Assembly: GCA_026387155.1 (NCBI GenBank)
Contig: JAPLMF010000027.1
Span: forward strand, 18,317 to 60,452
DNA length: 42,136 nt
Reading direction: 5' to 3'
DNA from: Candidatus Omnitrophota bacterium
Lineage (GTDB): Bacteria > Omnitrophota > Gorgyraeia > 2-01-FULL-45-10
Each line of letters begins with the position of its first letter. The first letter of the stretch is position 1. Positions 2,239 through 32,715 of this stretch are shown piece by piece. A program made the position numbers and the translations under genes. Under the pieces are notes generated by a model, which had not been told where the DNA came from, made no database searches, and worked only from the letters and a program-made list of their open reading frames with translations.

Positions 2239-2443
2239 CTATATCCCTTATCACTCTTAGCGTTGCCTTTGCCTCTTTTGCCTTCACCCGTTCTATTGCA
2301 AATCCGGCATGTATAAGAACATATTCTCCGATGCGCGCGTCTTTTAGAAGCGACATATTGGCTTTCCGTTTGAGCCCTCCGGCCGAAACGATGGCATCAT
2401 CGCCTTCTATACGCACTATCTTCATCGGTATTCCTAAACACAT
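2222..2443 (-). CDS. hypC: HypC/HupF chaperone
   Basis: MCLGIP N-terminus, YVLIHAGFAI. Confidence 0.96.
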   Translation of the reverse strand: MCLGIPMKIVRIEGDDAIVSAGGLKRKANMSLLKDARIGEYVLIHAGFAIERVKAKEAKATLRVIRDIDEIRR

Positions 2444-3507: not shown

Positions 3508-3513
3508 AGGCTT

Positions 3514-3522
3514 ATTATACCA
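3514..3522 (-). promoter_or_regulatory. Extended -10 promoter (TGGTATAAT), probable leaderless hypF transcript
   Basis: TGnTATAAT ends 6 nt before the hypF ATG; no Shine-Dalgarno in between. Confidence 0.5.
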
Positions 3523-3584
3523 AATAAGTTCCTTGGCTAGATAAATTTTTAGGGTCCTGCCCCCTTGTTAACCCTAAGCCTCGT

Positions 3585-4178
3585 TATGCTCTCATTGAAA
3601 ATACTCCTCTTACAGATGGCGGTAGTTTTGCGTTACCGCCTTCCGCTCGTCGTCCCGCCGCATTGGGCATGCGGCGGGCCTGTGGTAAAATTTTGATGGC
3701 CGCTGAATCTGCATACAACACAGCGGTAGATGGGGTTTAAACCCCATCTACCGAATATGGCTCTTTATAGTGCAGTTTCAGCGTCCGTTCTGTATCGCCC
3801 ATAAGAATCAAAATTTTACAACATTCGCTCCAGGCGGATAACGCCAAAACTACCGCCCTATCAGCTCGCTCCGCTAATTCCATCCCCGGCATGGAATAGA
3901 GCCACTTGAAGGAAAACCAGCTGCCGTCTTTGCTATCGCTGATTTTCCAAAATAAGTGAGCGAGAAACTTTTCCGCTTGAATTTATAAGGACGCCGAAGG
4001 AGCTGTGCCTGGCGGGGCGTCGAAGATCGCGAGCGGGCATGGGGCTGTCTAATAAAGATGAGGCGAGCGAGCGATCTTCCGAGTAAAATTTTCTCGCCGG
4101 GAAAATTTTACGTCCCCGCCAGACACAGCTCCTGAAGGCGGCCTTAAACAGGAAAGCGGAAAATTTCGAGCGAACGCG
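3585..4178. repeat. Structured non-coding element, copy A (three multi-stem modules: 3618-3857, 3865-3964, 3965-4166)
   Basis: Nested long inverted repeats, e.g. GGCGGTAGTTTTG/CAAAACTACCGCC and AGGAGCTGTGCCTGGCGGGG/CCCCGCCAGACACAGCTCCT. Homologous to 19367-19809 with compensatory changes. No credible ORF. Left boundary approximate. Confidence 0.85.
3724..3753. repeat. Perfect 30-bp palindrome, GTAG-type REP-like
   Basis: CGGTAGATGGGGTTTAAACCCCATCTACCG. Confidence 0.8.
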
Positions 4179-4748
4179 TTAGAATAGAAAGACTGCCGCT
4201 GCGACGACGGTCGTGAAGTTGCCCTCAGGGCCGACGACCGCGGTCTGAGTGGTATTGGACGTGCGGACTATCTTGTCACTTAGGTGGTATATAGCTTTAT
4301 TTTCGTCCCACGACTTGTCCTCATCGAATTCAAGCCCCAGTGTGGACGCTAACATTTCTACCGCGAGGTCTTCGGCAAGGTCACCGGCGACTTTTTCGTT
4401 CTGCCCGAAGGCATGGTGCTCACTTAAGTACCCGTATGCGGCAGGATCCGCCGGAACGGCACAGCCTATCGATACCGCTATCAGGCGGTGAGGCTCATTG
4501 CCGGAACAGCGCGACATAACTACATAAGTTATCATGCCGGGATAGACTTCTTTTAAGCCCTCATTCTTCGATATCATCTTGCATTCCGGCGGCAGGATGC
4601 TCGAAACCTTAACGAGATTACACTTCTCTATACCGGCTTCGCGCAGGGCCAGCTCAAAGCTCCGGAGTTCCGCTTTATGCGTACCGACACCCTTGGTAAA
4701 GAACATCTTCTTCGGGACTAAAAGGCTTTTCCTCGGCAGTAGAAGCAT
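4179..4748 (-). CDS. pdaD: Pyruvoyl-dependent arginine decarboxylase
   Basis: [25 protein letters not shown] (Ser-Ser autocleavage site), [16 protein letters not shown]; adjacent to agmatinase. Confidence 0.92.
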
Positions 4749-4763
4749 ATCATCTCGCTTTCA

Positions 4764-5645
4764 TCATCTCTTTGTAGGAAATATATATCCAAGAAGCCTG
4801 TATAGAAGTTTTGCGGCCAGAAAATCGCTTGCAATATTCCCTTTTATCGGACAGAGCTCCACTATATCAAACCCTACCACTTTCTTGTCCTTGACTACTC
4901 CTTTTAGAAAATCGATCGTCTCATACCATCCCAGCCCGCCGGGTTCAGGCGTGCCCACGGCCGGTACCATCGAAGGATCAAAAACATCCAGATCGACCGT
5001 TATATATACGTGCTCGGAAAGGCTGGCCGACGCCCTGTCCTTCCACATCGGCATATCGAGTATATCATATACATTTATCGACTTTATCTTGCCGTTTGGT
5101 TGTGAGGCCAGGAAGTCCTTCTCCTCTTTAGAGTAGCTTCTCATGCCTACCTGAACTATCGGGCAGATCTCCGATATCCTGCGCGCAACGCAGCCGTGGT
5201 TCAGCTTCGAACCGAAGTATACGTCCCGCATGTCGTAATGAGCGTCCATCTGCAGCACCGAAAGATCTGGATATACATCTTTAAGCGCCTTCACCGCGCC
5301 TATCGAGACGGAATGTTCGCCGCCGAGCAGGATCGGGAATTTATTGGCCTTCAATATCTCGGCCGTCGATGCGCGGACTTTTTCAAGAAGCGCCTCAGGC
5401 TCAAGGCCTTCCACCGTCAAAGGCTCCATGGTATGCAGACCTATCTTAAAAGTCTCCTGGTTGAGCTCCTCATCAAACCTCTCGAGATACCTCGAGGAAT
5501 CTATTATGGCGGCCGGGCCATCCTTAGCCCCGTGTATATATGTGGTCGTCTTGTCGTAAGGCACCTGCAATATGGCGGCCTTCGACTTCTTGAAATTGGA
5601 ATAATCTTCTTCTAATCCGAGAAAATTTTTAGGCATATTATCCAT
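4764..5645 (-). CDS. speB: Agmatinase (ureohydrolase family)
   Basis: GGEHS, DAHYD, DLDVFDPS..PAVGTPEPGG and DIVEL motifs. Confidence 0.93.
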   Translation of the reverse strand: MDNMPKNFLGLEEDYSNFKKSKAAILQVPYDKTTTYIHGAKDGPAAIIDSSRYLERFDEELNQETFKIGLHTMEPLTVEGLEPEALLEKVRASTAEILKANKFPILLGGEHSVSIGAVKALKDVYPDLSVLQMDAHYDMRDVYFGSKLNHGCVARRISEICPIVQVGMRSYSKEEKDFLASQPNGKIKSINVYDILDMPMWKDRASASLSEHVYITVDLDVFDPSMVPAVGTPEPGGLGWYETIDFLKGVVKDKKVVGFDIVELCPIKGNIASDFLAAKLLYRLLGYIFPTKR

Positions 5646-6660
5646 TTTTGATAAGCTTTGCCGACAATGCCACTGTCATCTCTATTACTTTAGCCGCCCT
5701 CGTCTCATCCATCGCCCCGACCCCGCAGGACGGCGTCACAAGTGATGAAATAAGATTTCTGTCCACGCCTTTGTCCGACAGCATCTTTACGGCCTCCTCG
5801 TATCTTTCTATGAGGGACTTACGGGTCTCTGTGTCTATCGCCTCGGACGTAGGCACCATGCCCCAGGCTATCGTGCCTCCCCGCGATGTAAAGTTCTTTA
5901 TATCAGCGTGATAGAGTGAAAACTCTTTCATAAAATTATAGGCGTCAAAGTTCAATATGTCAATATCCCTCTTTAAGAGTATCGACCAGTCCGTATTACC
6001 GCAACAGTGGATCCCGCAAATGGCGCCCTCTTTCTTTATTGCGTCTACGAGCTCGTCAAGCTTATCGGCGGCGTTCTCGGCGCTTATATTAACAAAGCTC
6101 GAACCTATCGACACCAGATATGGCTCGTCTATGAATATGATGACCGAGGGATGTATCTTCTTGAGACGCCTTATCTGCCACCTGGCCTTCATGACGAGCG
6201 TCTTTGTAAGGATCTCGAAAAGATCCTTATCATATATCACGGGCCTCTTGTTCTGGTCGGTAAGAAACAGGCCGTAGCTTAAAGGCCCGGTGATATGCCC
6301 TTTAATATGTTTTATATCCTTACAACCCTTTAACGCCTCCGGAAACTCGTATAGGCCCTTCGCCCTGGCTTCCGATATTCTGAAGAACTCAACATCTCCG
6401 TCGAGATATTTGGAATATACGTTCTCTATTTCAGCAGCCACTTTTGAAGTATCTATATGTATAGTCTTCTTCTCTTCATCGATAGACAAACCGGGCAGGC
6501 CTTCGGCATATTGGACATACATATTCTCGAGGAATGATCTCTTGGGGAGCTGCGGCCAGAACGGTATCGACTTAAAATTTTCACAGATGACCCGGCAGGC
6601 CGTCTTCGGGTCAGTAAAAGGAACGCTTCCTACGCCGGTGGCTTCAAAATTAAACTTCAA
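5638..6660 (-). CDS. Methionine synthase catalytic-core protein (MetE C-terminal-like, MesB-type)
   Basis: TGVGSVP, PFWPQLP, ITGPLS, FIDEP, HCCG (Zn ligands), NFDAY and TPSCG; no folate-binding N-terminal half. Confidence 0.72.
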   Translation of the reverse strand: MKFNFEATGVGSVPFTDPKTACRVICENFKSIPFWPQLPKRSFLENMYVQYAEGLPGLSIDEEKKTIHIDTSKVAAEIENVYSKYLDGDVEFFRISEARAKGLYEFPEALKGCKDIKHIKGHITGPLSYGLFLTDQNKRPVIYDKDLFEILTKTLVMKARWQIRRLKKIHPSVIIFIDEPYLVSIGSSFVNISAENAADKLDELVDAIKKEGAICGIHCCGNTDWSILLKRDIDILNFDAYNFMKEFSLYHADIKNFTSRGGTIAWGMVPTSEAIDTETRKSLIERYEEAVKMLSDKGVDRNLISSLVTPSCGVGAMDETRAAKVIEMTVALSAKLIKNG

Positions 6661-6661
6661 A

Positions 6662-7624
6662 CTATCTACCCCAGCTGCTCAAGCGTTTTATCCTTTTAAG
6701 CATATTGGGATGCGTGCTCATAAGCTCCATCATCTTGTCACCGAAGCCTAGCTTGACCTGTTTATTAGTAAGTGCGGCCATCTCCGAAGGCGATATGTCG
6801 CCGGATTTGTCAAGGTCCAGGTTTTTAAGGTCGCTTAGATCGTTCATCGCTCTTGACGGATCATTGGCAAAGAAGGCCTTCATCCCCTCGACGTCTTTTA
6901 TAGCCTCTTTAGGCATTCTGGCGGACCCGTATACGAGCTTATAAAGCGCCGAAGCAAGCGCCGAGGGCCGGTTACCTAGATCTACGGATCCTTTGTCGGC
7001 AAAATACTCCCTGATCCTTGACGCGTAAAGAACAAGGAGATTGGTTATAAAGTAGAATAGAAAAGCGACAACCCCGATAAGGGCTGTCCCGCCGGAGGAG
7101 TTCCTATCGCGCCTATCGCCGAAAAAAAGCAGTTGCCAGGCTATGCGGTATAATATCATCGGTATCACAGAGAGAAGCGTTATCGTCAGGACATCACGGT
7201 TCTTTATATGACTCATCTCATGTCCCAGCACCGCTCTAAGTTCCTCGTCGGACAATAGGTTCATTATGCCTCGCGTCACGCATATCCTACCGTCCCTTAT
7301 GCTGCGCCCGAAGGCGAATGCATTAGGTATCTCTATATCCGCCACCCCTATGCGTGGGGTGGGTATATGCGCGGCTGTGGCAAGCGCCCTGACCATCTGA
7401 TGGAGCCTGGGGTTCTCACTCTCTTTTATGTACTTTACGCGCATCGACCATTCGACTATCTTAGGCCCTATCATGTACTGAGCGAGCATTATCACAAACG
7501 AAAATACCAGGTAAAAGTAAAAGTTCGTGATGCCCATCCTGTAGCTTATCATCGAAACTACAGCATATATTATCGCGAACAATATAGCCGTTAAAAGAAA
7601 CATCCTTAATTTTAATCCCAACAT
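6662..7624 (-). CDS. htpX: Membrane zinc protease HtpX (M48)
   Basis: PNAFAFG, GHEMSH (HExxH), SRIREYFAD, STHP..KRI; TM segments. Confidence 0.93.
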   Translation of the reverse strand: MLGLKLRMFLLTAILFAIIYAVVSMISYRMGITNFYFYLVFSFVIMLAQYMIGPKIVEWSMRVKYIKESENPRLHQMVRALATAAHIPTPRIGVADIEIPNAFAFGRSIRDGRICVTRGIMNLLSDEELRAVLGHEMSHIKNRDVLTITLLSVIPMILYRIAWQLLFFGDRRDRNSSGGTALIGVVAFLFYFITNLLVLYASRIREYFADKGSVDLGNRPSALASALYKLVYGSARMPKEAIKDVEGMKAFFANDPSRAMNDLSDLKNLDLDKSGDISPSEMAALTNKQVKLGFGDKMMELMSTHPNMLKRIKRLSSWGR

Positions 7625-7649
7625 AATTCTCCCTCCCCTTCGCTATCCT

Positions 7650-8549
7650 TTAAAACTGCGTCTGAACCTTACAGACCCATTCCTGATAGGCTGTAGTATT
7701 CTTTCCCCACAGCATCATGCCGTATTGGAACTCTAAATTGAATAACTTATTACCCTGTCTAAGCACGCTATCCCCTCCGAAGACTTGCCATACGCCGCCG
7801 ATACGCCATATGCCGTAGTCTTCCTTTATGTGTCCCGTTCCGGGAACACACATATATCCATCGAGCTCGCTCTTTACGAGCAGCCATGTCGTAGGCCAAA
7901 AACCGCCCTCTACAAAATACGGTATGTCATCACAAACTTGCTTCGTGCGCCATCTGTATCCGGTCTCAGCGCCAAAATAGCATGGAAGCTTGAATTTCTC
8001 GGTTATGGGTACGGAGAATGTCTTGCCTATCAGGATCCTCTGTTCAACCGCATCATCTCCTTTACCTATAGACGGTGTATTTGTCCATGGGGCTTCGGAT
8101 CCGCGGTGTATCCCATATCCGGGATATATAAATACCTTCGTCTGTGTGCTCATGACGAAAGGAGCATCCATGAATCTCCACCTGCCGCCGACTTTGACCG
8201 AAGTAATACCGTGATTTTTATGAGAAAATGATCCCCATGAGACAGGCCTATCATACTCTTTATAATGAGCTTCTTTGTATTCTATACTGCCAAGGGCTGT
8301 CAGCGAATCGGTAACGCCGAATTCCAGCTTAGGTTCCTGCACGAATTCCCAGCTTCTGGCGTTATTATTCAGCTTCTCTTTCTTCCAATTACTGTTGAAA
8401 GATTCTTTGGCCCAGTCCCACTTCATGTAGTACTCGCTCCATACATGATCTTTGGGAACAGTCCATGCGCCGGCAAATACGCTCTCTATGCAAAATAAGG
8501 ACGCTAGGATAAAAACGGAAACGGCAACAAATATAAAGCTCTTTTTCAT
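7650..8549 (-). CDS. Putative outer-membrane beta-barrel protein
   Basis: Signal peptide ending VFA, then GAWT; aromatic-rich amphipathic strands; C-terminal Phe (KVQTQF). Confidence 0.6.
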   Translation of the reverse strand: MKKSFIFVAVSVFILASLFCIESVFAGAWTVPKDHVWSEYYMKWDWAKESFNSNWKKEKLNNNARSWEFVQEPKLEFGVTDSLTALGSIEYKEAHYKEYDRPVSWGSFSHKNHGITSVKVGGRWRFMDAPFVMSTQTKVFIYPGYGIHRGSEAPWTNTPSIGKGDDAVEQRILIGKTFSVPITEKFKLPCYFGAETGYRWRTKQVCDDIPYFVEGGFWPTTWLLVKSELDGYMCVPGTGHIKEDYGIWRIGGVWQVFGGDSVLRQGNKLFNLEFQYGMMLWGKNTTAYQEWVCKVQTQF

Positions 8550-8578
8550 GCATTCCCCAACGACTTACTTTTTATCCA

Positions 8579-8606
8579 ATTATACTACGTACTGACGGTT
8601 TGTCAA
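8579..8606 (-). promoter_or_regulatory. Sigma70-type promoter for the beta-barrel gene
   Basis: TTGACA (8606-8601), 16 nt spacer, TATAAT (8584-8579). Confidence 0.7.
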
Positions 8607-8619
8607 AATTTTATACTAC

Positions 8620-8694
8620 CCAGAATTTCACATGGGAAATTCTGGATTTTTACTAATCTACAGTTTATCCCGATTTTGCTATGTCAAAATCGGG
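8620..8694. terminator. Two 10-bp hairpins after the SBP stop (terminator or stabiliser)
   Basis: CCAGAATTTC-6nt-GAAATTCTGG (8620-8645) and CCCGATTTTG-6nt-CAAAATCGGG (8669-8694). Confidence 0.5.
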
Positions 8695-8697
8695 GAA

Positions 8698-9933
8698 CTA
8701 CCTCTTGGATGCGGCGCGTTCAAGCTCCCTCTTCACATCCGAGAGCCCTGCTTTTGGGTCAACCCCTTGCAGGACGGACCTCTGTATCACGTTATCTATA
8801 TACCTCGTATAGGCATCCCAATTGGCTATCGCCGGAGGCCCCTTCGAATCTTCGGCCTGGTCGACAAGGACTTTCTTGAATTTAGGATCCATATCGATCA
8901 TGGCCCATGTCTTCTTATTCGGAGGGAAATAAGTGTCCTGTTTGATCAGAGCGGCTTCATATAAAGCCTTCTGCATCTCTGGTGTGGAGAGATACCGAAT
9001 GAAGGCCCATGCCTCTTTCTTATGTTTGGACTGTTCAAATATCCCCATTATCCTGCCGCCGATGAGGGCTGTTCTCTTGCCGGAAGGGCCTTGCGGCAGC
9101 ATAGCTATAGACCATTTACCGGCTATCTCCGGGGCTGAAAGACGTAAATCATCTATCTTCCAGTTGCCGGATATTGCCAGGGGGAAATCCCCGGTCCTCA
9201 TGCCTTGCTCGAGAGGTATCTTCGTCTTCGGTACATTGTACTTCGTATAAAGCTCGGAGAAGAACCTCATCGCTCTCTCCGCTTCCGGGGAATCTATCAT
9301 GACTTTCGAGTAGTCGGGTGAGTAGTAATCCCCGCCGGCTTGCCACAGGAACGGCGAATATCCTATCCAGCTCAAAGACCCCCAATCGAAGATCATTCCT
9401 TTGTTGGATTTATTGAGATCCGCCAGCACCGCTTCGAGTTCTTCCCATGTACGCGGAGGTTCTTTTACGATGTCACTTCTATAGTACAAGATATATTCGG
9501 TCAGATCGAACGGAACACCATACACCTTGCCTTTATATTCTATGGAATTCCACAGGCCGGGAAATATCGTCTCCTTTATAGCTCGGACTTCTTCCGGATA
9601 TGCCGCCGCCAGATCTACCATTGAATCGAGAATGCCGAACTCTGTGCCCCAGGTAAGGCCCATCGTTCCTATGTCCGGCGCAACACCTCCAGCTATCGAG
9701 GTCAAATATTTTGAATGTGCGTCGCCCCAGGAGATGGCCTCGCAATTCACTTTTATTCCGGTCTTTTTTAAAAAATCTTCCGCGAGGGACTTTATCGTTA
9801 TGGCTTGGCCTTCGGAGCCTATCAACCACATCATTATTTCCGGGGTCTTCCCGCTGCCAGCATCATCGGCTTTCTTCCCGCATCCGGATATTAACAGGCA
9901 GCTGACAAGGATCAAAGCTAGAATTTTTTTCAT
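8698..9933 (-). CDS. Carbohydrate ABC transporter substrate-binding lipoprotein
   Basis: Probable start MKKILALIL with lipobox LISGC; PDI, YGVPF, YYRSD and GG..MGI motifs of CUT1 SBPs. Confidence 0.9.
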   Translation of the reverse strand: MKKILALILVSCLLISGCGKKADDAGSGKTPEIMMWLIGSEGQAITIKSLAEDFLKKTGIKVNCEAISWGDAHSKYLTSIAGGVAPDIGTMGLTWGTEFGILDSMVDLAAAYPEEVRAIKETIFPGLWNSIEYKGKVYGVPFDLTEYILYYRSDIVKEPPRTWEELEAVLADLNKSNKGMIFDWGSLSWIGYSPFLWQAGGDYYSPDYSKVMIDSPEAERAMRFFSELYTKYNVPKTKIPLEQGMRTGDFPLAISGNWKIDDLRLSAPEIAGKWSIAMLPQGPSGKRTALIGGRIMGIFEQSKHKKEAWAFIRYLSTPEMQKALYEAALIKQDTYFPPNKKTWAMIDMDPKFKKVLVDQAEDSKGPPAIANWDAYTRYIDNVIQRSVLQGVDPKAGLSDVKRELERAASKR

Positions 9934-9961
9934 TTTTTTCTTTTGGCTTCTGACTTCTGTC

Positions 9962-11218
9962 CTATATTCTAGCAAACACCTGTTGCATCACAAGCGATGC
10001 AGCACCGCAGGCTATCGAATCCTCTTCCAGGCTGGTGGGAACTATCCTGACTATCTTAAGGCTCTCCTCATAAGCCCATTTCTTCGCCCCGCCGCGTACA
10101 GCGGCCATGAATACGTCCCCGAACTTCTCTATCCCGCGTCCTATGACTACGGCATCCGGATTAAAGAGATTTATGAGGACCGCTACCTTCGCGCCGAGAT
10201 AATCTCCGGCTTCGTTGAGTATATTACCGGCCACCTTATCGTCCGTGGCAGCCGCTTCCACGATCATCTTTACCGTTATCTTATCGGGATTGCCTCCTGC
10301 CAGGTCGAGTATCCTGGAAGAAACCTTATCGTCCCTGAAATAGTGCTTCGCGCGCTGCACTATACCTAAGTCTATGCCCCTTGACCGGAAACCGCAGCCG
10401 TAGTCATATTTGGCCCAACAGTTATCATCTTTATAATCCGGTGAAGGAGGGTTTATGTTAAGCTCGCCGGCGCTTTTTGAGGCGCCATAATAGATCTCGC
10501 CGTTCAGTATGAGGCCGCAGGAAGAATCTGAACACATATAAATTATATTCTCGGCTTCCGTATTCAATCCAAGCCCCATCCACTTTTCACCGAGCGCTCC
10601 GGCTGTGGCATCATGCTCGACCAGCGTAGGCGCGTCAAGATCTTTTTCCAGCAGGGACTGCAGATTTGTATAGTTGAAGAGTCCTCCTTTTTCCACCGCG
10701 TATCTCACGACACCTTTATAACGGTCGAGCACTCCCCAACTGCCTATGCCTATCCCCCTAAGCCTCTCTTTGTCTATCCCGGACTTATCAAAAGCGTCGC
10801 GGGCGATCCTCCGTATCTTCTCAGTAAACTTATCCTGCGACTCTTCCTCTTTCTTGATCTTGGCTTTGGCGACTATCTTGCCGGCCGCGTCAACTACGAC
10901 GGCTATGGCGCAGGAATCTTCCATTATGTGGGGGCTACCAAGATCTATCCCTATGGCATAACCGTACTTGGCATTCAGATCCAAAAGTTCGGGCCTGCGC
11001 CCTCCGGTGGATACGTCGTATCCGCGCTCGAGAACGAGGCCTTTTGCGATGTAGTCGTCTATGTAGTTGGATATCGTTACTATATTCAGATGAGTTATCT
11101 TCGATATTTCGGCCCGCGATATCTGACGGGTCCTTCTTATTATATCGAGTATGGCTAGATTGCGTCGCTCCTTTTCGGTAAAGCGGTCGTTTCTTAGAAC
11201 CCTTCCCCTTATGGCCAT
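9962..11218 (-). CDS. ROK family transcriptional repressor (NagC/XylR-like)
   Basis: N-terminal HTH (ISRAEISKIT..TIS), STGGRRP, GIDLG, EHDATAGALGE, LFNPDAVVIG. Confidence 0.92.
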   Translation of the reverse strand: MAIRGRVLRNDRFTEKERRNLAILDIIRRTRQISRAEISKITHLNIVTISNYIDDYIAKGLVLERGYDVSTGGRRPELLDLNAKYGYAIGIDLGSPHIMEDSCAIAVVVDAAGKIVAKAKIKKEEESQDKFTEKIRRIARDAFDKSGIDKERLRGIGIGSWGVLDRYKGVVRYAVEKGGLFNYTNLQSLLEKDLDAPTLVEHDATAGALGEKWMGLGLNTEAENIIYMCSDSSCGLILNGEIYYGASKSAGELNINPPSPDYKDDNCWAKYDYGCGFRSRGIDLGIVQRAKHYFRDDKVSSRILDLAGGNPDKITVKMIVEAAATDDKVAGNILNEAGDYLGAKVAVLINLFNPDAVVIGRGIEKFGDVFMAAVRGGAKKWAYEESLKIVRIVPTSLEEDSIACGAASLVMQQVFARI

Positions 11219-11257
11219 ACTTCCTCCATCCGGTTGGTCTTAGGCTGTTACCATACG

Positions 11258-12397: not shown

Positions 12398-12422
12398 TTC
12401 CTCTAACCGCTCCTTTCTAAAT

Positions 12423-14777
12423 TTAGCCTAACTCCACTTCCACTTTATGAACTTTGCCGTCATTGAATACCGGCGTCACATTACCCTCTATCTTCATTCC
12501 GTCGACTTTAAGGTGCTTAACCCCTTTATTTATACCCTTGGGGTTTCTCACGTGGATATCATAGGTAGCGTTCCTAAAGACCCTTTTCACTTCAAACGAC
12601 TTCCACCTCTTCGGGATACAAGGGTCAATCACCAGGCCATTATAATCCGGCTTGATCCCCAGGATGTATTCCGATATGGCAACGAAGTTCCACGCCGCCG
12701 TCCCTGTAAGCCATGAATTCCTCGCGCGGCCGAAGTTCTGATTGGACTTTCCTGTTATGAACTGCGAATATATATAACATTCCGTGAGGTGGATATCGGC
12801 CATCTTATTCTTTGTAGTCGGAAGTATCGTCTTATAGTACTTATACGCTATATCTCCGCGGCCCAGGATCGTCTCGGCTATCATCGCCCAGGGATTCGAA
12901 TGGCAGAATATACCACCATTCTCTTTCAAGCCCGGCGCAAATGTCGTCACTGCTCCGAGTTTCTCGTCGTACTCGGTATACGGCGGATTTATCAGCATTA
13001 TCCCATACTCGGTATCGAGTAGCCTCTTGACGCTGTCCATACAGGTGAGGCCGCGTACGCCTTCCGCTATCCCGCTCATAACCGCCCATGATTGCGGAAG
13101 AAGGTCTATATTACCGCCTTCTTTGCATTTTGCCGATCCCACCGGTTGTCCGTATTTATCTATTCCGCGTATATACCATTTCCCGTCCCAAGCCTTTTTG
13201 TTGAAATTATCTTTTATACCGAAGGCAACCTTGCTGTACTTCTCATAATCTTCGACGCGATCGAGGAGATTTGCTATCGTAAGAAATTCCTGTATCTCGA
13301 GATACAAAAGCTCGGGGACCCATGTAGTCTCGGCGATCTCGTTGCCGACACCCAAATTAAGGCAATCGTTCCAATCGGCAAAACGCATCTTTACGAAACC
13401 CTCTTTACCCTTCTCGCTCAATACAAAATCTATGGCCTTCTTAAGGTGCTCATAAATAGAGGCGGACTCACCGTCTATGAATTTCACCCTCTCATCTAGG
13501 AAGGCGATATCTCCTGTCTCTTTCATATAAACAGCGGTCGACATTATAAGCCATAGCGGGTCATCAGAATATCCGCCCTTCTCGCCTGTCTTAGTAAGCG
13601 GGAAGAACTTATGGTACGAAGAACCATTCTTGAACTGATTTGACGCAAGCTCCATGATGCGCGCCTTTACCCTTTGGGGTATGGCGTGCACAACGCCGAT
13701 AGTATCCTGATTTGAATCCCTAAAACCCATCCCCCGGCCTATACCGGCCTCGTAATATGACGCGGAACGCGACCAGTTAAATGTAGTGCGGCACTGGTAC
13801 TGATTCCAGATGTTTACCATGGAGTTAACTTCGGGGTCCGGTGTCTTGGCATGGTAGTGGTCGAGATACTTGGCCCAGTAGGCCTTAAGCTCATCAAGTT
13901 TCTTATAAACGTCCGTCTCTTTTAAATATCTCGAGTAAGTCTTTTTTGCCTCTTCCTTCGTCTCGGCAACGCCGAGGGAAAATATTATATCTTTCGTCTC
14001 GCCTTTCTCTAGCGATACGTTTAAAGATACGCTCGCTATCGGGTTACCTCCCGAAGCTGTAGAATTAAAGGACTTGCCATTTTCAACCGCCACCGGATCC
14101 GATTCAGAGCGGTACCTGCCTATAAAATCCTCCCTATCGCAATCATATCCCGATATCTTCTTATTACATCCGAAATACGAAAGTCCGAGTTTGCCAAATT
14201 TAGGCGCGTAACCGGTCTGGTGAAATATGACGTTGCCCTCATTAACAGCGCTTGCTATATTAAGCGTATACTGGAAATCGGTCATGTCCATTTCGGCATG
14301 CCAGAGACAGAATTCTAAATACGTAAATATCTTGATCTTGCGCGTTTTTCCGGAATTATTGATTACCTTAAGCGCCCAGAACTCCATATTTTCCCCGAGC
14401 GGAACAAAATAGTCCGTCTCGGTAGATATGCCGGCGTATTTTGATTTGATCGTCGTATATCCCATGCCGTGGCGGCACTCGTATTTATACCCTTTATCCT
14501 TGCGAACCGGCTGCCCGGTAGCCGACCAATAGTCACCTGAAACCTCGTCGCGGAGATATATGTATCTCCCTGGACGATCGACGGGAATGTTATTATATCG
14601 AAACCTGGTTATTCTCCTGTCCTTGGGATCCTTATGAAAGCTGTATCCGCCCGCCGTATTCGACATTAGCGCGCAATATTCGTCGCATCCGAGATAATTT
14701 ATCCATGGGGTGGGCGTATCGGGCCGCGTTATTACGAATTCCCTATTCTTATCGTCAAAATATCCGTACTTCATCAT
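12423..14777 (-). CDS. GH94 glycoside phosphorylase (cellobiose/chitobiose phosphorylase-like)
   Basis: PDTPTPWINY, GRGMGFRDSNQD, DWNDCL, ENGGIFCH and SWLTGTA motifs. Confidence 0.93.
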   Translation of the reverse strand: MMKYGYFDDKNREFVITRPDTPTPWINYLGCDEYCALMSNTAGGYSFHKDPKDRRITRFRYNNIPVDRPGRYIYLRDEVSGDYWSATGQPVRKDKGYKYECRHGMGYTTIKSKYAGISTETDYFVPLGENMEFWALKVINNSGKTRKIKIFTYLEFCLWHAEMDMTDFQYTLNIASAVNEGNVIFHQTGYAPKFGKLGLSYFGCNKKISGYDCDREDFIGRYRSESDPVAVENGKSFNSTASGGNPIASVSLNVSLEKGETKDIIFSLGVAETKEEAKKTYSRYLKETDVYKKLDELKAYWAKYLDHYHAKTPDPEVNSMVNIWNQYQCRTTFNWSRSASYYEAGIGRGMGFRDSNQDTIGVVHAIPQRVKARIMELASNQFKNGSSYHKFFPLTKTGEKGGYSDDPLWLIMSTAVYMKETGDIAFLDERVKFIDGESASIYEHLKKAIDFVLSEKGKEGFVKMRFADWNDCLNLGVGNEIAETTWVPELLYLEIQEFLTIANLLDRVEDYEKYSKVAFGIKDNFNKKAWDGKWYIRGIDKYGQPVGSAKCKEGGNIDLLPQSWAVMSGIAEGVRGLTCMDSVKRLLDTEYGIMLINPPYTEYDEKLGAVTTFAPGLKENGGIFCHSNPWAMIAETILGRGDIAYKYYKTILPTTKNKMADIHLTECYIYSQFITGKSNQNFGRARNSWLTGTAAWNFVAISEYILGIKPDYNGLVIDPCIPKRWKSFEVKRVFRNATYDIHVRNPKGINKGVKHLKVDGMKIEGNVTPVFNDGKVHKVEVELG

Positions 14778-14791
14778 ATTTCGAAGTTCCT

Positions 14792-15385
14792 CTAATCTGA
14801 AAGCTTCACGTTATCTATATAGATCGGCCCGCGGTACTGGATCTTCCCGTTAGATTCAACACGTACGCCCATCTTCTTTACATCCGCTCTGAAACCGTCA
14901 TCTATGAAGCGCCTCCACGCCATGCTCTCCGGCGTAAGGTCAGCCTTTATAACGGTCCATTCACCCGGCGTGAGCGGTATAGATCTGTTCATCTCCGTCC
15001 ATTTCCAGCCTTCACCCACGGTAAGTATGATCTTGCCCCTCAGGCCTCTTGGCGCGTTATTCGGCAAAAATACGTCAGCCGATACAAAACTAAACGGGCT
15101 CCAATCGGTCACGTCGACTACGCGCTCTACATACGCGGCCTGCCAACCAGGGAGCCCAGAAAAGTCGACATCAAGTTCAAGCGCATACTTGCCTTCGCTT
15201 GCATTAAATTCGGAAACGCTTAAAGATCTGGCGACATGGTCTTTTTTGGTCGTTGCCCAGTCGGGTATATCCCAGCCCTGAGGGTCCTTCTCAAACGTAT
15301 ATAAAGTTACCTCTCTTGCATAGGATGGCCCGGCGACAAACGCAGCCGTTAATAAAATCATAAAAAATATGTTTAAGATTCGCAT
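14792..15385 (-). CDS. Secreted stand-alone CBM-like protein (paralogue of 16587-17177)
   Basis: Signal peptide; FEKD.QG, SEG..L, PGEW and GPIYIDNV.L typical of jelly-roll CBMs. Confidence 0.6.
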   Translation of the reverse strand: MRILNIFFMILLTAAFVAGPSYAREVTLYTFEKDPQGWDIPDWATTKKDHVARSLSVSEFNASEGKYALELDVDFSGLPGWQAAYVERVVDVTDWSPFSFVSADVFLPNNAPRGLRGKIILTVGEGWKWTEMNRSIPLTPGEWTVIKADLTPESMAWRRFIDDGFRADVKKMGVRVESNGKIQYRGPIYIDNVKLSD

Positions 15386-15400
15386 AAAAAAATAAGGCGC

Positions 15401-16477
15401 TTATTTATAGAGACTTCTCTTCGGCGTCGGCTTCTTATACCACTCCCTTACGAGGTTCTGTGCGGGTTTATTCTGCGGTGTAAAACTCTTATTTCCCTTG
15501 CCACCCAGATTCTTATTAGTCCCCCACTTCCACCAGTACGCCCCGTAGAACCACTCCTTGGACCAAAATAGTTCGAAGACGGCGCGATAGCAATCTTCCT
15601 GCAGCTTCATGTTAAGCGGCTTACCAACTGCCTCTTCCCACGGCCTCTTAGTGATATCCTCGGCGGAGCAATACCCGATCTCGGGGAATATTATCGGTTT
15701 ATCCACCTTCTTCTGGAACTCTTCCATATCCTTTATCCAGGGGCCCCACCCGGCTTTTATCTCCTCATAAGTAGGTATCTTTTTATCTGATAGCGGGAAA
15801 TACGCATCTATGCCGACATAATCCATTTTGTCCCAGAACTTGACATATTGATATTCGTCATGCCAGTTCGCGGCATATGTGAGAGGCCCCTTGTATGCTT
15901 CTTTTATAGGGGGTATTACGATCGTCTTCCATTTATCCTCTTTGATAGTAGACACAGAAGTGAGCTCCGTCCCAATGCAGAACATATCGCATTTCGTCTC
16001 CTCGGCGATCTTTGCGTAATGGACTATGAAATCCCTGTAGTTCTTGAACCACGCATCCCACTCCGGATTAGTGGAACACGCTATCTCCCCGCGGAACTCT
16101 CCCTCGGATGTATCGCTGATATCGAGATGGGGTTTTAGCATTACCTTCATACCAAGTGAATGGGCTTCGTTTATTATGCTGATGACGCTTGAGTCACTTG
16201 GAGTACTTTCGGCGGGATACATCCTATTAGTGGAGCATTTCTCCTGATACCAGGTGGGTGTTACAGCTACCCAGGTTGTGCCGATATCTTTAACGACCCT
16301 TATCGATTCATGCGAACCATTGGAAGAAAATGCATCTTTCGACCATGTAACATAACACATGCCCTTCTGGAACTCAAAAGCAGGTCTAGGGGCAAAGAGC
16401 CCGGACCGTGAAAGGGCCATATATCCGAATACTGCAGCCGCTATCAAGAGTAATATGAGTGCTGATCTTTTTTTCAT
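15401..16477 (-). CDS. GH113 glycoside hydrolase (beta-mannanase family)
   Basis: KVMLKPH, IGTEL, YAANW, IDAYFPL and PEIGY motifs; N-terminal anchor/signal. Confidence 0.87.
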   Translation of the reverse strand: MKKRSALILLLIAAAVFGYMALSRSGLFAPRPAFEFQKGMCYVTWSKDAFSSNGSHESIRVVKDIGTTWVAVTPTWYQEKCSTNRMYPAESTPSDSSVISIINEAHSLGMKVMLKPHLDISDTSEGEFRGEIACSTNPEWDAWFKNYRDFIVHYAKIAEETKCDMFCIGTELTSVSTIKEDKWKTIVIPPIKEAYKGPLTYAANWHDEYQYVKFWDKMDYVGIDAYFPLSDKKIPTYEEIKAGWGPWIKDMEEFQKKVDKPIIFPEIGYCSAEDITKRPWEEAVGKPLNMKLQEDCYRAVFELFWSKEWFYGAYWWKWGTNKNLGGKGNKSFTPQNKPAQNLVREWYKKPTPKRSLYK

Positions 16478-16531
16478 GATATTTCCGGTTATTATACAAT
16501 AATGGTTCTAAAAACACAACCCTTTATATAA

Positions 16532-16569
16532 TTTCATCCCGAGATGGAATTTTCCATCCCGGGATGAAA
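16532..16569 (-). terminator. Long hairpin after the CBM-like gene
   Basis: TTTCATCCCGAGATGGAA-TT-TTCCATCCCGGGATGAAA; the single mismatch is G-U on the - strand. Confidence 0.55.
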
Positions 16570-16586
16570 AACATGAAAAACGCTCT

Positions 16587-17177
16587 TTACTTCGTCAACC
16601 TCAGGTTGTCAATATATATCGGACCGGTATATTCCGGTTTCTTGTTCGACTCGACCCTGACAGCCAGCTTGCGCACGTCTTTGCGGAAGTTATCGTCTAC
16701 GATCGTCTTCTTCCAATCCTCGCTGCCCGGGATCAGACTTGCCGATATCGTAACCCATTCGCCCGGAACCAACTGTGTCGATCTTGCCATCTCGGTGAAC
16801 TTCCAGTTCTCGCCCACCGTGAAGACCATCTTGCCTTTAAGCCCGATCGGGGCCGTCTTCGGTATATATATGTCTACCGATACCGCCTTATAAGGAGTCC
16901 AATCGAAATACTCAAAATCCTCTACAAGAGCGGCGGTCCACACTTTACCGGGAAATGCGCAGTCTACTTTAAGCGACTGGATTCCCTCACTGGCAAAGTC
17001 CTTCGATACTTCAATGTTCTTTGCCACATGGTCTTCCTGCTCCATAGCCCACTCCGGCACCTCGAAGCCCTGAGTGTCTTTCTCGAAACCGAACAGCACC
17101 TTATCTTCGGCGCGCGCGGATATCTGGAAGAGACAGGCTACGATCACCGCCATACCTAACACCACTATCTTCTTCAT
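16587..17177 (-). CDS. Secreted stand-alone CBM-like protein
   Basis: Signal peptide (..ISARA), strong RBS AAGGAGGTG; aligns end-to-end with 14792-15385. Confidence 0.6.
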   Translation of the reverse strand: MKKIVVLGMAVIVACLFQISARAEDKVLFGFEKDTQGFEVPEWAMEQEDHVAKNIEVSKDFASEGIQSLKVDCAFPGKVWTAALVEDFEYFDWTPYKAVSVDIYIPKTAPIGLKGKMVFTVGENWKFTEMARSTQLVPGEWVTISASLIPGSEDWKKTIVDDNFRKDVRKLAVRVESNKKPEYTGPIYIDNLRLTK

Positions 17178-17209
17178 ACGACACCTCCTTTTATTTTACC
17201 CACACTATT

Positions 17210-17254
17210 AGTATACATTTTTGACTGTTAAATTTCTGTTAAAATAACATTAAA
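17210..17254 (-). promoter_or_regulatory. -10 box (TATACT) preceded by OmpR/PhoB-like 11-bp-period direct repeats
   Basis: - strand TTTAATGT/TTTAACAG/TTTAACAG at an 11-nt period, ending 9 nt upstream of TATACT. Confidence 0.55.
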
Positions 17255-17263
17255 TATTTCTAA

Positions 17264-18715
17264 TCAAGGGCGGACTAAAGGAAGCGATACGATGAAGGTG
17301 GTGCCTTCACCCGGATGGCTTTGGACCGATATGCCGCCGCCGTGAGATTCTGCGACTGCCTTAGCTATACTAAGCCCCAGCCCAAACCCGGAACTTGAAC
17401 GGGATTTATCCACACGGTAAAACCTGTCGAATATATGGCCTATCTCATCCTCGGGTATGCCCGGGCCGGTATCCTTTATACTTATATTGGCTGAAGCGTT
17501 CCTCTTTACGGCAGATACCTCTATCCTGCCTTTTTCCGGCGTATATTTGAACGCATTCTCTATTATATTAAGGAAGAGGATCTTTAGCTGATTGGGATCC
17601 CCATATATCCACAACCCTTCGAGCCCTGAGAATGAAAGCATTATCTCTTTTAGTTCCGCCAACCCTCTTACATTATTTGTTATACCTTTCAGAAGCACAG
17701 TAATATCCAGTTTTTCGCTCTTCTGCGATATCTCCTTTGAATCGAACTTGGCCAGTATCAGAAGATTCTCTGCCAGACTTATTATCCTGTCGGTCTCCTC
17801 GAGCGCGCTCTTTAACGTCTCCTGATACTCAACGTTTGACCGCGTTTTTTTAAGTATAACCTCAAACTCCCCCTTCAGTATGGTGAGGGGCGTCTTCAGT
17901 TCATGGGAAAGGTCCGCGAATAACCTGCGCTGGGTATTAAAGGCCGACTCAAGCCTTCCCAGCATGTCGTTGAACGTTTCGGCCAGCTTCTGGATCTCGT
18001 CTTTTGTATTCGGGATCTTCAGCTTTATCATCATATTCTCGGCGCGGATCTGATGTATCGTCTCTATCATATTATCAACGGGATGAAGCGTGACTTTGGC
18101 GAGGAACGCCCCCATAACACCTGTGGTCAGGACGGTTATAGGGAAGAGCAGAAAGAGTCCCACTTTTAAGTTGTTCAAGGCTATCTTTATCGATCCAAGA
18201 GGACTTGCTACTTGTACTATGTAAGCAACCTTCTCATTCTCGAACACGGGCGCCGTATATATCCTAAAATCGGCCATGGTATCGAAACGCTGTTTCCCTT
18301 GAAGAACCGGGATAAATTCGCCGCGGGGTATCTCGCCTAAACCTGCTATATTCTTTGAGGAGGCGATGGCCTTGCCGTCTGTATCAAAGACCTGTACCAT
18401 GATGTCCAAAAGTTTCGGATCGGTCGACTCCTCCTTCACCCATCTCTGCGCTATCCTCGAGAAGTTGGCGTTCCTGCGTTTGCGCAATATCTCCGACGCG
18501 TCGGCGCCGTCCATAGCTTCGAGGTTCGCTGCCTGCCAGTAAGTATCTATCGCCTGGGCGATACCACCGGCCTTGGATTTAAGGAGAGTATCCATGTTGC
18601 TATTCAAGCTCACATTGACGTTATGGTAGAGGATGAGGCTGAAAGATGTAAGCGTCAGGGCCAGGATCGCCATATAGAGGATCGTTATCTTAAACCTTAT
18701 CGATTTTAAAAACAT
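17264..18715 (-). CDS. HAMP-domain sensor histidine kinase
   Basis: Two TM helices, HAMP, SHELKTP H-box, NAFKY, DTGPGI, FDRFYR, GFGLGL. Confidence 0.95.
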   Translation of the reverse strand: MFLKSIRFKITILYMAILALTLTSFSLILYHNVNVSLNSNMDTLLKSKAGGIAQAIDTYWQAANLEAMDGADASEILRKRRNANFSRIAQRWVKEESTDPKLLDIMVQVFDTDGKAIASSKNIAGLGEIPRGEFIPVLQGKQRFDTMADFRIYTAPVFENEKVAYIVQVASPLGSIKIALNNLKVGLFLLFPITVLTTGVMGAFLAKVTLHPVDNMIETIHQIRAENMMIKLKIPNTKDEIQKLAETFNDMLGRLESAFNTQRRLFADLSHELKTPLTILKGEFEVILKKTRSNVEYQETLKSALEETDRIISLAENLLILAKFDSKEISQKSEKLDITVLLKGITNNVRGLAELKEIMLSFSGLEGLWIYGDPNQLKILFLNIIENAFKYTPEKGRIEVSAVKRNASANISIKDTGPGIPEDEIGHIFDRFYRVDKSRSSSGFGLGLSIAKAVAESHGGGISVQSHPGEGTTFIVSLPLVRP

Positions 18716-19367
18716 ATCCCCTTCCGCGTACTGTGTGGATCAATTTTTTCTTATGGCCCGTATCGATCTTATTCCTGAGATAATTTATATAGACATCTAT
18801 GACGTTGGTGAAGGTATCGAAATTTATGTCCCACACATGCTCCGATATCATCGTCCTGGTCACGACCGTTCCGGCATTGCGCATCAGGTATTCCAGAAGG
18901 GAATATTCTTTTGCAGTAAGGGGTATCTCTCTCCCGGCGCGCGTCACTTTGTGCGTGGAGAAGTCCATTATCAGATCCTCGACCTGTATCACCTTGGAAC
19001 CCGAATTCTCTTTCTTCCGCAGGACGGCACGTATCCTGGCCAGAAGCTCCTCAAAAGCGAAGGGCTTCGTCATGTAGTCGTCGGCGCCCAGGTCGAGCCC
19101 ATCAACTTTATCCTTGGTGGCGTCTTTTGCAGTGAGCATTATCACGGGGGAGAATATCTTCTCTTTACGGATCTCTTTAAATAGACTGTGACCGTCAAGT
19201 TTGGGGAGCATCAGATCCAGGAGGATCAGGTCATATTCGCCGGTCTTGGCCAGGAAGAGTCCCTGCTCGCCGTCATACGCCGAATCCACGGCGTAACCCT
19301 CTTCCTTAAGGCCGCGCTTAATAAAGTCGGCGATCTTTTTCTCGTCTTCGACAACAAGTATGCGCAT
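18690..19367 (-). CDS. OmpR/PhoB family response regulator
   Basis: VVEDE, LDLMLP, GADDY.TKPF and winged-helix (LTAKEY, TVRGRGY). Confidence 0.96.
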   Translation of the reverse strand: MRILVVEDEKKIADFIKRGLKEEGYAVDSAYDGEQGLFLAKTGEYDLILLDLMLPKLDGHSLFKEIRKEKIFSPVIMLTAKDATKDKVDGLDLGADDYMTKPFAFEELLARIRAVLRKKENSGSKVIQVEDLIMDFSTHKVTRAGREIPLTAKEYSLLEYLMRNAGTVVTRTMISEHVWDINFDTFTNVIDVYINYLRNKIDTGHKKKLIHTVRGRGYVFKIDKV

Positions 19368-19809
19368 ACGCTCCGCTCAAAATTTTCCGCATTCTAATGG
19401 CGGCACCTTCGCGGCCGGTGATAAAATTTTGATGGACAATGAACCTGCAAACACACAAACGATTAAACAGTTTCATTGTCCGTTCTGAACTGCCGTAATG
19501 TATCAAAATTTTATAACATTCGCTCCAGGCGGACCGCAAAGGTGCCGCCATTGCAGCGAACAGAAAAATTTTTCGCCTCTCTTCTATCAAGGTCCTCTGA
19601 GGGATGGGTGTTGAGCGGGGCGTCGAAAATCGCGAGCGGGCATGGTTCCCGCCAAACACCTTTGAAAATGTACTTACTGACATTCTATAGCTATCTCCTT
19701 GTTTGGCGGGAGAGCGAGCGATTTTCCGAGTGAAATTTCCTCGCAGGTGAAATTTCACGTCCCCGCGAAACACCCACCCGAGAGGACTTTGGAAATAGCG
19801 AAAAATTTT
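19367..19809. repeat. Structured non-coding element, copy B (modules 19396-19552 and 19565-19809)
   Basis: Fills the entire intergenic gap. Stems AATGGCGGCACCTT/AAGGTGCCGCCATT, AAAATTTTTCGC/GCGAAAAATTTT and TCCCGCCAAACA/TGTTTGGCGGGA. Junction sequences shared with copy A. Confidence 0.85.
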
Positions 19810-32529: not shown

Positions 32530-32646
32530 CAGGGCTAAAACCCTGCGTTCCTTTCAGTCTATGCGACATCCCGCCCCGTTCATTCGACTTCCGCGGCGGG
32601 ATAAGAGAGATTAGGTTATCACAAGGCCATTATACCGTCAATCTAA

Positions 32647-32689
32647 TTCCAAACCTGGTTTGGATCCGCATGCCAAACCAGGTTTGGAA
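32647..32689. repeat. Nested palindrome (REP-like doublet)
   Basis: TTCCAAACCTGGTTTGG-9nt-CCAAACCAGGTTTGGAA; each arm is itself palindromic. Confidence 0.7.
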
Positions 32690-32715
32690 CTTGGAACATG
32701 GGCCTGGGTGGAATG

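Follow-up and report, generated by a model that had tools for sequence, protein, structure and literature searches.

Two families of palindromic spacer elements with branched folds, probably mobile, in Omnitrophota, one of them also in ultra-small bacteria

Small palindromic repeats of bacterial spacers have been described in several forms, of which ERIC and RPE come nearest to the elements reported here. According to the passages of PMC10969869 that deal with them, ERIC copies vary in number from a few to hundreds between relatives and affect mRNA through RNase E in an orientation-dependent manner, RPEs are palindromic repeats of ~150 bp that are found in small genomes, also in frame within protein-coding genes, and MITEs such as the Correia repeats are small, non-coding, multi-copy and flanked by inverted repeats, and form stable stem-loops when transcribed. 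Here we analyze a 42,136-nucleotide (nt) stretch of contig JAPLMF010000027.1 from a Candidatus Omnitrophota bacterium (assembly GCA_026387155.1), which we call the window. Two of its regions, A (3585-4178) and B (19367-19809), each take up the whole spacer between minus-strand open reading frames (ORFs) and each hold two elements, M1 and M2. Both are long imperfect palindromes that branch in the interior and contain a few unpaired strings that do not vary. We consider it probable that in A and B alike two distinct mobile elements stand in tandem, both of them small, non-coding, non-autonomous and of the ERIC/RPE/MITE kind, with a fold that is constrained in single-stranded form. They depart from that kind in that their termini drift while the center is invariant, in that the fold is branched, and in that M2 crosses phyla. 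The best-supported account is that M1 and M2 are new families outside Rfam, with ERIC and RPE, compared by description, as the nearest systems.

The genomes of Omnitrophota and ultra-small bacteria are streamlined (0.7-2 Mb), and few mobile elements are known from them, yet about a tenth of the spacer DNA in the window's own genome consists of repeated palindromic modules. M2 is a rare small repeat in that its ends drift but its branched fold and the unpaired core persist from phylum to phylum, which points to a recognition partner; if found, such a partner would explain movement in genomes that lack the usual transposases. M2 could also mark gene flow between Omnitrophota and ultra-small bacteria, and would represent a new RNA class if its fold were catalytic or protein-binding. 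Even as selfish DNA, these repeats break assemblies, reshape operon spacers and, in at least one case, reshape a protein (SecA).

Two folded element families in tandem

A and B share two modules in the same order, as the original prediction had it, and all 24 of the stem strings and five junction strings that it named are present at the places it gave. The compensated stems that it described are borne out by 11 of the 12 named stem pairs of A and B, which are perfectly complementary, the sole imperfect one being the GGCCGCTGAA/TTCAGCGTCC stem in A with a single C.T mismatch. Each stem string has a single location within A or B, apart from GTGAAATTTC with two in B, and each of the junction strings, described as near-invariant, is found in A and in B, one time each, and nowhere else in the window. 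The two regions align with a mean column identity of 71% and large indels at the hairpin tips. The apical loops, said to vary freely, do so when A is compared with B. Within the families at large, two loops are conserved: 20 M2 sequences drawn from several phyla show little or no change in the P3 loop CNCGCNGGG, and 17 M1 sequences have an almost unvarying P2 loop, ATTRGGCAT.

The view of A and B as copies of a single large element gives way to one of two independent modules, M1 (~160-260 nt) and M2 (~140-200 nt; 140-260 nt for the families as a whole), each of which is also found alone. In the window's own assembly (G000; 1.62 Mb, 108 contigs, 91% complete, 46.6% G+C), profile searches for the M1 ends returned eight strong 5'-end and ten 3'-end matches, which by our own count from the two lists of end matches correspond to about 13 places. 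The full M1 core is present in A, B and contigs C42, C32, C16 and C13, the last of these copies being readable in part owing to a run of N (C13:1727-1797). Contig C17 has the outer M1 hairpin alone, a minimal form; M1-type ends enclose other interiors in C89, C46, C9, C29 and at a second C32 site; and C66 holds the M1 3' half with extra hairpins. M2 has three copies in G000, namely those in A and B and one at C1:5073-5226, which shares 94% identity with A. Related genomes repeat the order M1-linker-M2 (G026:C1, G026:C4, G004:C24, G001:C70, and G001:C73), but among the loci fetched from other genomes by the M2 pattern (L054 upward) M1 lies near M2 at only two, and A and B are therefore tandems of two separate element families. 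A single RNA of 450-600 nt was considered and rejected, because M2 occurs without M1 at most loci and the modules favor opposite strands.

The M2 fold is a three-way junction formed by a sequence-variable outer stem P1, a stem P2 with an invariant internal loop, and a hairpin P3 with a conserved loop. RNAalifold applied to 13 M2 sequences from 11 genomes gives 38 pairs, 24 of them with compensatory changes. Among 100 model-aligned matches (96 distinct), in an alignment whose fitting to the covariance model favors the structure, 93.2% of 3522 cells are paired, and the 96 distinct sequences show changes on both sides at 37 of the 38 pairs. Double-change cells number 914 compared with 235 in shuffles, and none of 500 shuffles reaches the observed values. 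When the partners are slid by 1-3 columns, only 42-60% of cells are paired, and the covariation score falls from the observed 0.65 to 0.08-0.14. For M1, a MAFFT alignment of 17 copies from 14 genomes, which served both to derive the structure and to score it, gives 46 pairs with 94.7% of cells paired and double changes at 25 pairs; none of 500 shuffles matches the observed values on four of five measures, 28 of 500 do so on the fifth, and slid controls give 36-48% paired. The folds of the individual elements are correspondingly stable: M1 of A (3610-3865) has a minimum free energy (MFE) of -120 kcal/mol (z -9.7) and M2 of A (3990-4145) one of -82.1 kcal/mol (z -6.5), with none of 200 shuffles as good in either case.

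The invariant unpaired strings of M2 are CGAGCGGGCAYGG, GAGCGAG and the hairpin loop CNCGCNGGG, with GAGCGGGCAYGG/GAGCGAG as a short form of the internal loop core. An alignment of 20 sequences that span several phyla has CGAGCGGGCA.GG, GAGCGA and, in the P3 loop, C.CGC.GG as its invariant columns; a loop-to-loop pairing between the P3 loop and GAGCGAG is not supported by covariation in this alignment. The constraint on fold and junction nucleotides that had been proposed from A and B alone thus extends to the larger alignments (96 sequences for M2, 17 for M1). The arms of the palindromes could, however, stay complementary partly by copying from arm to arm, so that covariation alone is no proof of selection on RNA.

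The nature of the imperfect pairs bears on which strand folds. Read on the window's plus strand, the M2 pairs include 102 GU/UG (74 without one doubtful pair) against 25 AC/CA, and the mismatches 167 GA/AG against 14 CT/TC. In all 91 distinct copies the plus strand is more stable than the minus strand, with a mean difference of -10.3 kcal/mol by RNA and -4.2 kcal/mol by DNA parameters; after shuffling, z is -6.8 for the plus and -5.8 for the minus strand, and the plus strand has the lower value in 21 of 30 copies. The evidence that M2 folds on the plus strand is good but not absolute. M1 probably folds on the minus strand, opposite to M2: this strand is the more stable in 14 of 17 copies, by a mean of 6.9 kcal/mol, and mismatches read on the plus strand are C.T in 19 cases versus G.A in five, while GU versus AC (five versus six) is uninformative. 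The call is weaker than that for M2. On that reading, both elements carry GAGCG-rich junction strings on their folding strands, back to back in A and B.

These strand data also speak to the idea that M1 and M2 are palindromes of double-stranded DNA (protein-binding sites, cruciforms or relics), the arms of which are kept alike by arm-to-arm copying or repair in the absence of any single-strand selection. Copies within a genome are 85-95% alike, and their outer arms differ from copy to copy and are still perfectly complementary, a change that would be fast for mutation and selection and is seen in every local hairpin. Arm copying yields Watson-Crick pairs whichever strand is read and gives no strand bias, yet the pair and mismatch counts are strongly skewed and the z-scores of M2 are usually lower on one strand; furthermore, conservation is highest in the unpaired junction strings. 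We therefore regard this explanation as improbable.

Genomic context and distribution

Orthologous spacers in related genomes are either empty or occupied by other palindromes, and A/B-type elements are therefore insertions. The spacer between the response-regulator and GH113 genes that holds B measures 440 nt in G000 and 21 nt in G007, and in G005 and G004 it contains unrelated palindromes of 75-100 nt, which makes it a repeated target for different palindromes. The repeat is of the GCTTTCAGC type in G005 (L193, G005:C10) and of the AAGCT/ATAAGC type in G004 (L192, G004:C198). Another orthologous spacer, followed through four congeneric genomes, is empty in G036 (39 nt), holds a different palindrome with 35-bp arms in G018, M2 plus extra modules in G026, and a 400-nt mosaic in G030. 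Any preference of fresh insertions for hairpin loops or AAAATTTT sites would bear on the mode of transposition.

M1 and M2 are part of a larger population of palindromic spacer repeats with many other module families in G000, where 101 of the 498 spacers of at least 80 nt, as delimited by our rough ORF calls, carry sequence that is repeated in another spacer, 17.8 kb in total. One such repeat, TTCCAAACCTGGTTTGG ... CCAAACCAGGTTTGGAA, lies at 32643-32690 of the window (C68:50958-51006) and has copies in C29 and C5; a AACCAGGTTAGA palindrome in the G030 mosaic is related to it. In G026 (L164-L171), a further shared module, TCACTGTCCCAATCTCACTCTCTACTCACC, precedes four of eight M2 copies, and three have an extra hairpin inserted directly before P1. 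The elements are bracketed on both sides by A-tracts and T-tracts (AAAATTTTYCGS ... SCGRAAAATTT). The short bracket motif AAAWTTTTYCGS occurs at 47 and 39 sites compared with ~15 expected by base composition, but only six inverted pairs lie within 800 nt, too weak a signal for a marker of element ends. Genome-wide k-mer enrichment of GAGCGAGCG-type words gave low counts and was uninformative.

The neighboring genes are as diverse as the original prediction supposed. Pfam agrees with its account of the flanking genes as unrelated: A lies between genes for a protein with HypF C-terminal (Kae1-like) domains and a pyruvoyl-dependent arginine decarboxylase (ORFs 2434..3507 and 4179..4748, both minus strand), and B between those for an OmpR-type response regulator and a GH113 hydrolase (18690..19367 and 19808..21445, both minus strand). 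The 'hypF' ORF (2434-3507, minus strand; 357 aa) is confined to the two Kae1-like domains of the HypF C-terminus; as G004 has a comparably short gene next to pdaD, the element did not split this ORF. Among 328 flanking proteins across loci no recurrent neighbor was found, the largest cluster comprising four loci and all being housekeeping genes, and M2 occurs in both orientations. Multiple copies, the absence of a recurrent neighbor and empty orthologous spacers all agree with the earlier view of a dispersed element as opposed to a riboswitch, and a cis-regulator of a constant gene class was likewise rejected in view of the unrelated housekeeping neighbors and mixed orientation.

M2 copies often abut the stop codon of a gene at a distance of 14-40 nt, and between co-directional genes the plus strand of M2 is more commonly antisense than sense (31 versus 16 for the Omnitrophota type and 16 versus 6 for the small-genome type, 47 versus 22 in total), a tendency rather than a test, as copies are non-independent. 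Position is also what might recommend host-selected cis-acting elements, i.e., bidirectional terminators, RNA-stability hairpins or processing sites: the elements always lie in spacers, often just behind a stop codon, with A-tract/T-tract brackets on both sides, and ERIC and Correia repeats have such effects according to the relevant passages of PMC10969869. At B, GCTCCGCTC just before the left bracket may provide, on the minus strand, the GGAG ribosome-binding site ahead of the response-regulator start codon. Against this, orthologous spacers do without the elements, a plain hairpin is enough for termination and leaves the invariant junction strings unaccounted for, the more stable strand of M2 is usually absent from the mRNA of the flanking genes, and a terminator scan gave nothing above shuffles at B and four sites versus 1.7 expected at A, none of them at element ends. 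Such a host role appears to us a poor explanation.

One M2-type copy lies within a gene. In three related small genomes (L064, L069, L117), it sits antisense and in frame inside secA, where it adds ~60 residues between GRGVDIILGG and GGLHVIGTERHE; Omnitrophota SecA lacks an insert there. Stem changes between these genomes are compensated even within the coding sequence. We take this site to fall in the variable loop of nucleotide-binding domain 2, in which the E. coli protein also carries an insert. Of 11 copies examined in that small genome, this is the only one in a gene. Elsewhere, direct M2 copies bracket one ORF6N-domain gene (L100:2196-3164) and inverted copies one ORF without a Pfam family (L070:6686-7881), and no transposase is among the genes between these paired copies.

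An exact-pattern scan for M2, with one genome per species, returned 76 stretches, mostly in metagenome-assembled genomes (MAGs) labelled Candidatus Omnitrophota or 'uncultured Planctomycetia', which are of the same small-MAG kind. A profile search confirmed 61 of the 76 loci, leaving 15 without a match to the hidden Markov model (HMM). Twelve of the unconfirmed or weak loci were inspected, including L060 with its weak HMM match, and nine were folded, with L072, L075, L102 and L103 left out; L067, L098, L106, L090, L112, L105, L114 and L060 have M2-like folds, whereas L058, L078, L087 and L115 are apparent chance matches in G+C-rich DNA. At the DNA level, A has matches in 27 of 36 other genomes of its family, two of three of a sister family, and one of 21 from other families. 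The covariance model that the original prediction had called for (R1) reveals further M2 homologues in 52 of 151 sampled Omnitrophota genomes (47 of 125 of high quality) and has no match in the other 99; even close relatives differ in copy number, which runs from none to at least 18 per genome, and many matches lie at contig ends.

Variants with the same architecture are present in genomes of 0.5-0.9 Mb labelled Saccharibacteria or Azambacteria and in a Krumholzibacteriales MAG. In one 0.7-Mb genome R1 gives 19 matches, and a broader model, R2, finds M2 in nine of 151 genomes of this second, small-genome phylum (the 0.7-Mb genome counted) with 1-14 copies each. Gene transfer between Omnitrophota and Patescibacteria in groundwater is reported in a part of PMC12455944, which makes a shared mobile element plausible as far as that part goes. 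A phage or plasmid origin was rejected, as an exact pattern search of IMG/VR and blastn against plasmid and phage records returned no match. Our literature search, supplements aside, found no prior description of these elements in Omnitrophota or Patescibacteria.

The layout of the two arrays is given in Table 1. The 40 nt of the leader module M0 also precede M1-type ends in C16 (92%) and C9 (88%) of the same genome, and two M2 copies of G026 have a related string upstream. Within the A linker, a 38-nt piece (3911-3948) also follows M1 in C32 and C42 by own-genome blastn, and the bracket TTTTCCGCTT pairs, on reading the sequence, with AAGCGGAAAA 3' of M2. ATTTTAC at the end of the GH113 gene is kept in relatives without the element. 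B is crossed by ORFs (19318..19773 minus, 19476..19733 plus) to which nothing in A corresponds, and a protein-coding reading was set aside on these grounds.

Table 1. Parts of arrays A and B in window coordinates
Feature	Position	Strand	Details and basis
A, leader module M0 (TTAACCCTAAGCCTCGTTATG...TGAAAATRCTCC)	3555..3612	+	precedes M1 outer stem
A, M1	3610..3865	- (probably)	fold, located strings, covariation
A, M1 outer stem	3618-3630/3845-3857		extends to ~23 bp; P2 hairpin also present
A, M1 inner stems	P3 3685-3697/3807-3819; P4 3698-3707/3777-3786		extra tip hairpin 3724-3753
A, linker	3866..3989		own-genome blastn and sequence reading
A, M2, three-way junction	3992..4146	+	R1 match 140.7 bits, MFE, covariation
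A, M2 P1 and P2	P1 3998-4007/4124-4133; P2 4022-4030/4071-4079		P1 plus GCGGGG/CCCCGC
A, M2 conserved internal loop	4031-4042 and 4065-4071		GAGCGGGCATGG and GAGCGAG
A, M2 P3 hairpin	4083-4093/4101-4111		loop TCGCCGG
B, left bracket CAAAATTTTCCGC	19378..19390		sequence reading
B, M1, short form	19396..19555	-	lacks P2 and tip hairpins; nhmmer match 19417-19549, located strings
B, M1 stems	outer 19399-19409/19539-19549; P3 19421-19433/19502-19514; P4 19434-19443/19472-19481		
B, middle bracket GAAAAATTTTTCGCC	19563..19577		between M1 and M2; pairs with GCGAAAAATTTT at 19798-19809 (sequence reading)
B, M2	19595..19792	+	long insertion in P2 tip; R1 match 154.4 bits, located strings
B, M2 stems	P1 19605-19612/19769-19776; P2 19625-19633/19718-19726; P3 19730-19739/19749-19758		
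B, right bracket GCGAAAAATTTT	19798..19809		last bases overlap GH113 stop codon (TTA on +)

Partners, mechanism and possible functions

No Rfam 15 family was found by cmscan in the window, in A or at ten other loci. The whole window has no match at gathering thresholds, and with E-values as the cut-off the best match over 3400-4400 is mir-550, at 26.7 bits compared with a threshold of 81. Six loci of the small-genome phylum are without Rfam matches, and in four further loci (E up to 1) the matches are limited to a tRNA and, weakly, a snoRNA (19.4 bits, cut-off 48), both away from M2. The hammerhead, twister, twister-sister, pistol, hatchet and HDV-like ribozymes, HEARO, OLE, GOLLD, ROOL and the group II intron were rejected as candidates along with other known RNA families, as all fall below their Rfam 15 thresholds. 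Neither a match to Rfam or an IS end nor a want of further homologues and of covariation, the outcomes that were to refute the original prediction, has come about.

How the elements spread can be outlined in conditional terms. They would be copied or moved through a single-stranded intermediate of RNA or DNA, its strand being the window's plus strand for M2 and probably the opposite one for M1. The outer stem would bring the two ends of the element together, and the invariant junction and loop would form the recognition site of a factor acting in trans, either a host enzyme or one supplied by a rare master element. Copies would then be retained at sites of little harm, for the most part in antisense orientation between co-directional genes.

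Several observations weigh against mobile elements of this kind. A co-occurring RAYT, reverse transcriptase or nuclease gene, which the original prediction had suggested looking for, was not found in G000, where Y1_Tnp (PF01797), the reverse transcriptase RVT_1 (PF00078), the TnpB zinc ribbon (PF07282), the IS110 recombinase (PF01548) and DDE_Tnp_1 all have 0 matches, whereas matches were obtained in the control genomes. The only transposase found there is a single-copy gene of IS3 type (C1:33273-34330, minus strand; an HTH ORF of 102 aa and an rve ORF of 239 aa), which shares nothing with M1 or M2, and no parent transposon was found in G000. The termini of M1 and M2 differ in sequence even within one genome, unlike the inverted repeats read by transposases, and a target-site duplication could not be defined in comparisons of filled and empty sites, which at 70-80% identity have blurred boundaries. 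About 6 of the 10 kcal/mol of strand asymmetry in M2 stem from base composition, the plus strand being rich in G and purines. Conservation of the core across phyla goes far beyond that of ordinary selfish repeats and would also suit a cellular function. Finally, the metatranscriptome evidence for M2 amounts to two short partial contigs and settles nothing. The IS3-type pair adjoins a 1.2-kb spacer.

Cellular function is the essence of another explanation, in which M2, and perhaps M1, is a family of functional RNA genes (a multi-copy small RNA, protein-scaffolding RNA or self-cleaving ribozyme), each transcribed from its own strand, for which mobility is secondary and the repeats are gene copies. 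The persistence of invariant unpaired strings and a conserved hairpin loop across phyla would be expected of such genes, as would the very strong covariation of M2, the purine-rich folding strand with G.U and G.A mismatches as in structured RNAs, and the preferred orientation opposite to the flanking genes. Weak support also comes from two short contigs (X13, X14) from lake metatranscriptomes, which match M2 at 19601-19642 and 19731-19768 with two differences each; they continue into unlike sequence and belong to other carriers, carry-over of DNA is possible, and the data comprise three runs with short contigs from other organisms. Scans around A and B, on the other hand, detected no promoter- or terminator-like signal above shuffles at element ends, and the copies of the 0.7-Mb genome take up their spacers entirely, leaving no room for a promoter. 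Copy number varies greatly among close relatives, 99 of 151 genomes of the phylum have no match, one copy is translated through inside secA, and no Rfam ribozyme model matches. Taken together, these points make RNA genes an unlikely explanation, if one to be kept in mind.

In its specific form, for which the odds appear slightly longer still, M2 would be a new class of functional RNA, a ~140-nt three-way junction with the internal loop CGAGCGGGCAYGG/GAGCGAG and the loop CNCGCNGGG as a catalytic or protein-recruiting core, and M1 would be a second such class. M2 could then, e.g., cleave itself as a ribozyme or serve as scaffold RNA in a mobile or defence system not yet described and, at the same long odds, would be common to Omnitrophota, ultra-small genomes of the Patescibacteria type and at least one further phylum. 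The sole promoter-like match around A and B is TGGGCA-16-TAAAAT with TG (3664-3691), inside M1. It belongs to a sigma-70-like site on the plus strand, in which TTRGGCA of the conserved P2 loop is followed after 16 nt by TGGTAAAAT, with both strings conserved and their spacing constant in the family; judging by these motifs, the site could drive transcription towards M2.

Comparison with known systems

One point of reference is the bacterial ncRNAs of Rfam that are large or present in many copies. HEARO/IscB omega RNA, OLE, GOLLD, ROOL and ribozymes likewise combine strong covariation with conserved junction nucleotides, and HEARO and several ribozymes exist in many copies; M1 and M2 differ from them in matching no Rfam 15 model at A, B or the ten other loci and in having no associated IscB, TnpB or reverse transcriptase gene. 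For bridge RNA of IS110, the adjacent DEDD recombinase has no match in G000 (PF01548) and there is no recurrent neighbor; for retron, group II intron or retrozyme-like RNA the reverse transcriptase gene has none (PF00078), and for TnpB omega RNA or re-RNA both PF01797 and PF07282 have 0 matches in that genome.

Elements recognized as folded single-stranded DNA, namely attC sites and the ends of IS200/IS605 elements (PATEs), resemble M1 and M2 in that fold is conserved more than sequence and one strand is favored. PATEs differ in that G000 has no Y1 transposase, and the folded strand of M2 is mostly antisense to its neighbors. For attC, with the core-site consensus RYYYAAC/GTTRRRY, reading the ends of M1 and M2 revealed no core sites, an integrase not having been searched for. 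REP/BIME and REPIN-RAYT systems share the mosaic palindromic arrays in spacers, both orientations and arms kept complementary, but REPs are simple hairpins of 20-40 nt tied to Y1 (RAYT), whereas M1 and M2 are 140-260 nt long and branched, and G000 has no Y1_Tnp.

Like MITEs, M1 and M2 are small, non-coding, multi-copy elements of spacers. However, a MITE retains its parent IS's terminal inverted repeats and makes target duplications, whereas the termini of M1 and M2 vary and the center is conserved, and neither a parent IS nor shared terminal inverted repeats were found for them in G000. ERICs are closer in being imperfect palindromes of ~130 nt that lie in spacers, are conserved across genera and vary in copy number. 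Wilson and Sharp reportedly noted in 2006 that larger forms of ERIC arise by internal insertions and that compensatory changes occur. M1 and M2 differ from ERIC in their branched fold, invariant junction strings and variable termini, in the cross-phylum distribution of M2, and in that no TA or other target duplication has been seen. RPEs, finally, are often located in genes and belong to different host phyla, whereas here a single copy among the 11 of one small genome is so placed; that copy, the M2-type insert of about 60 residues in frame in secA of three genomes, is nevertheless a feature that M2 has in common with RPE by description.

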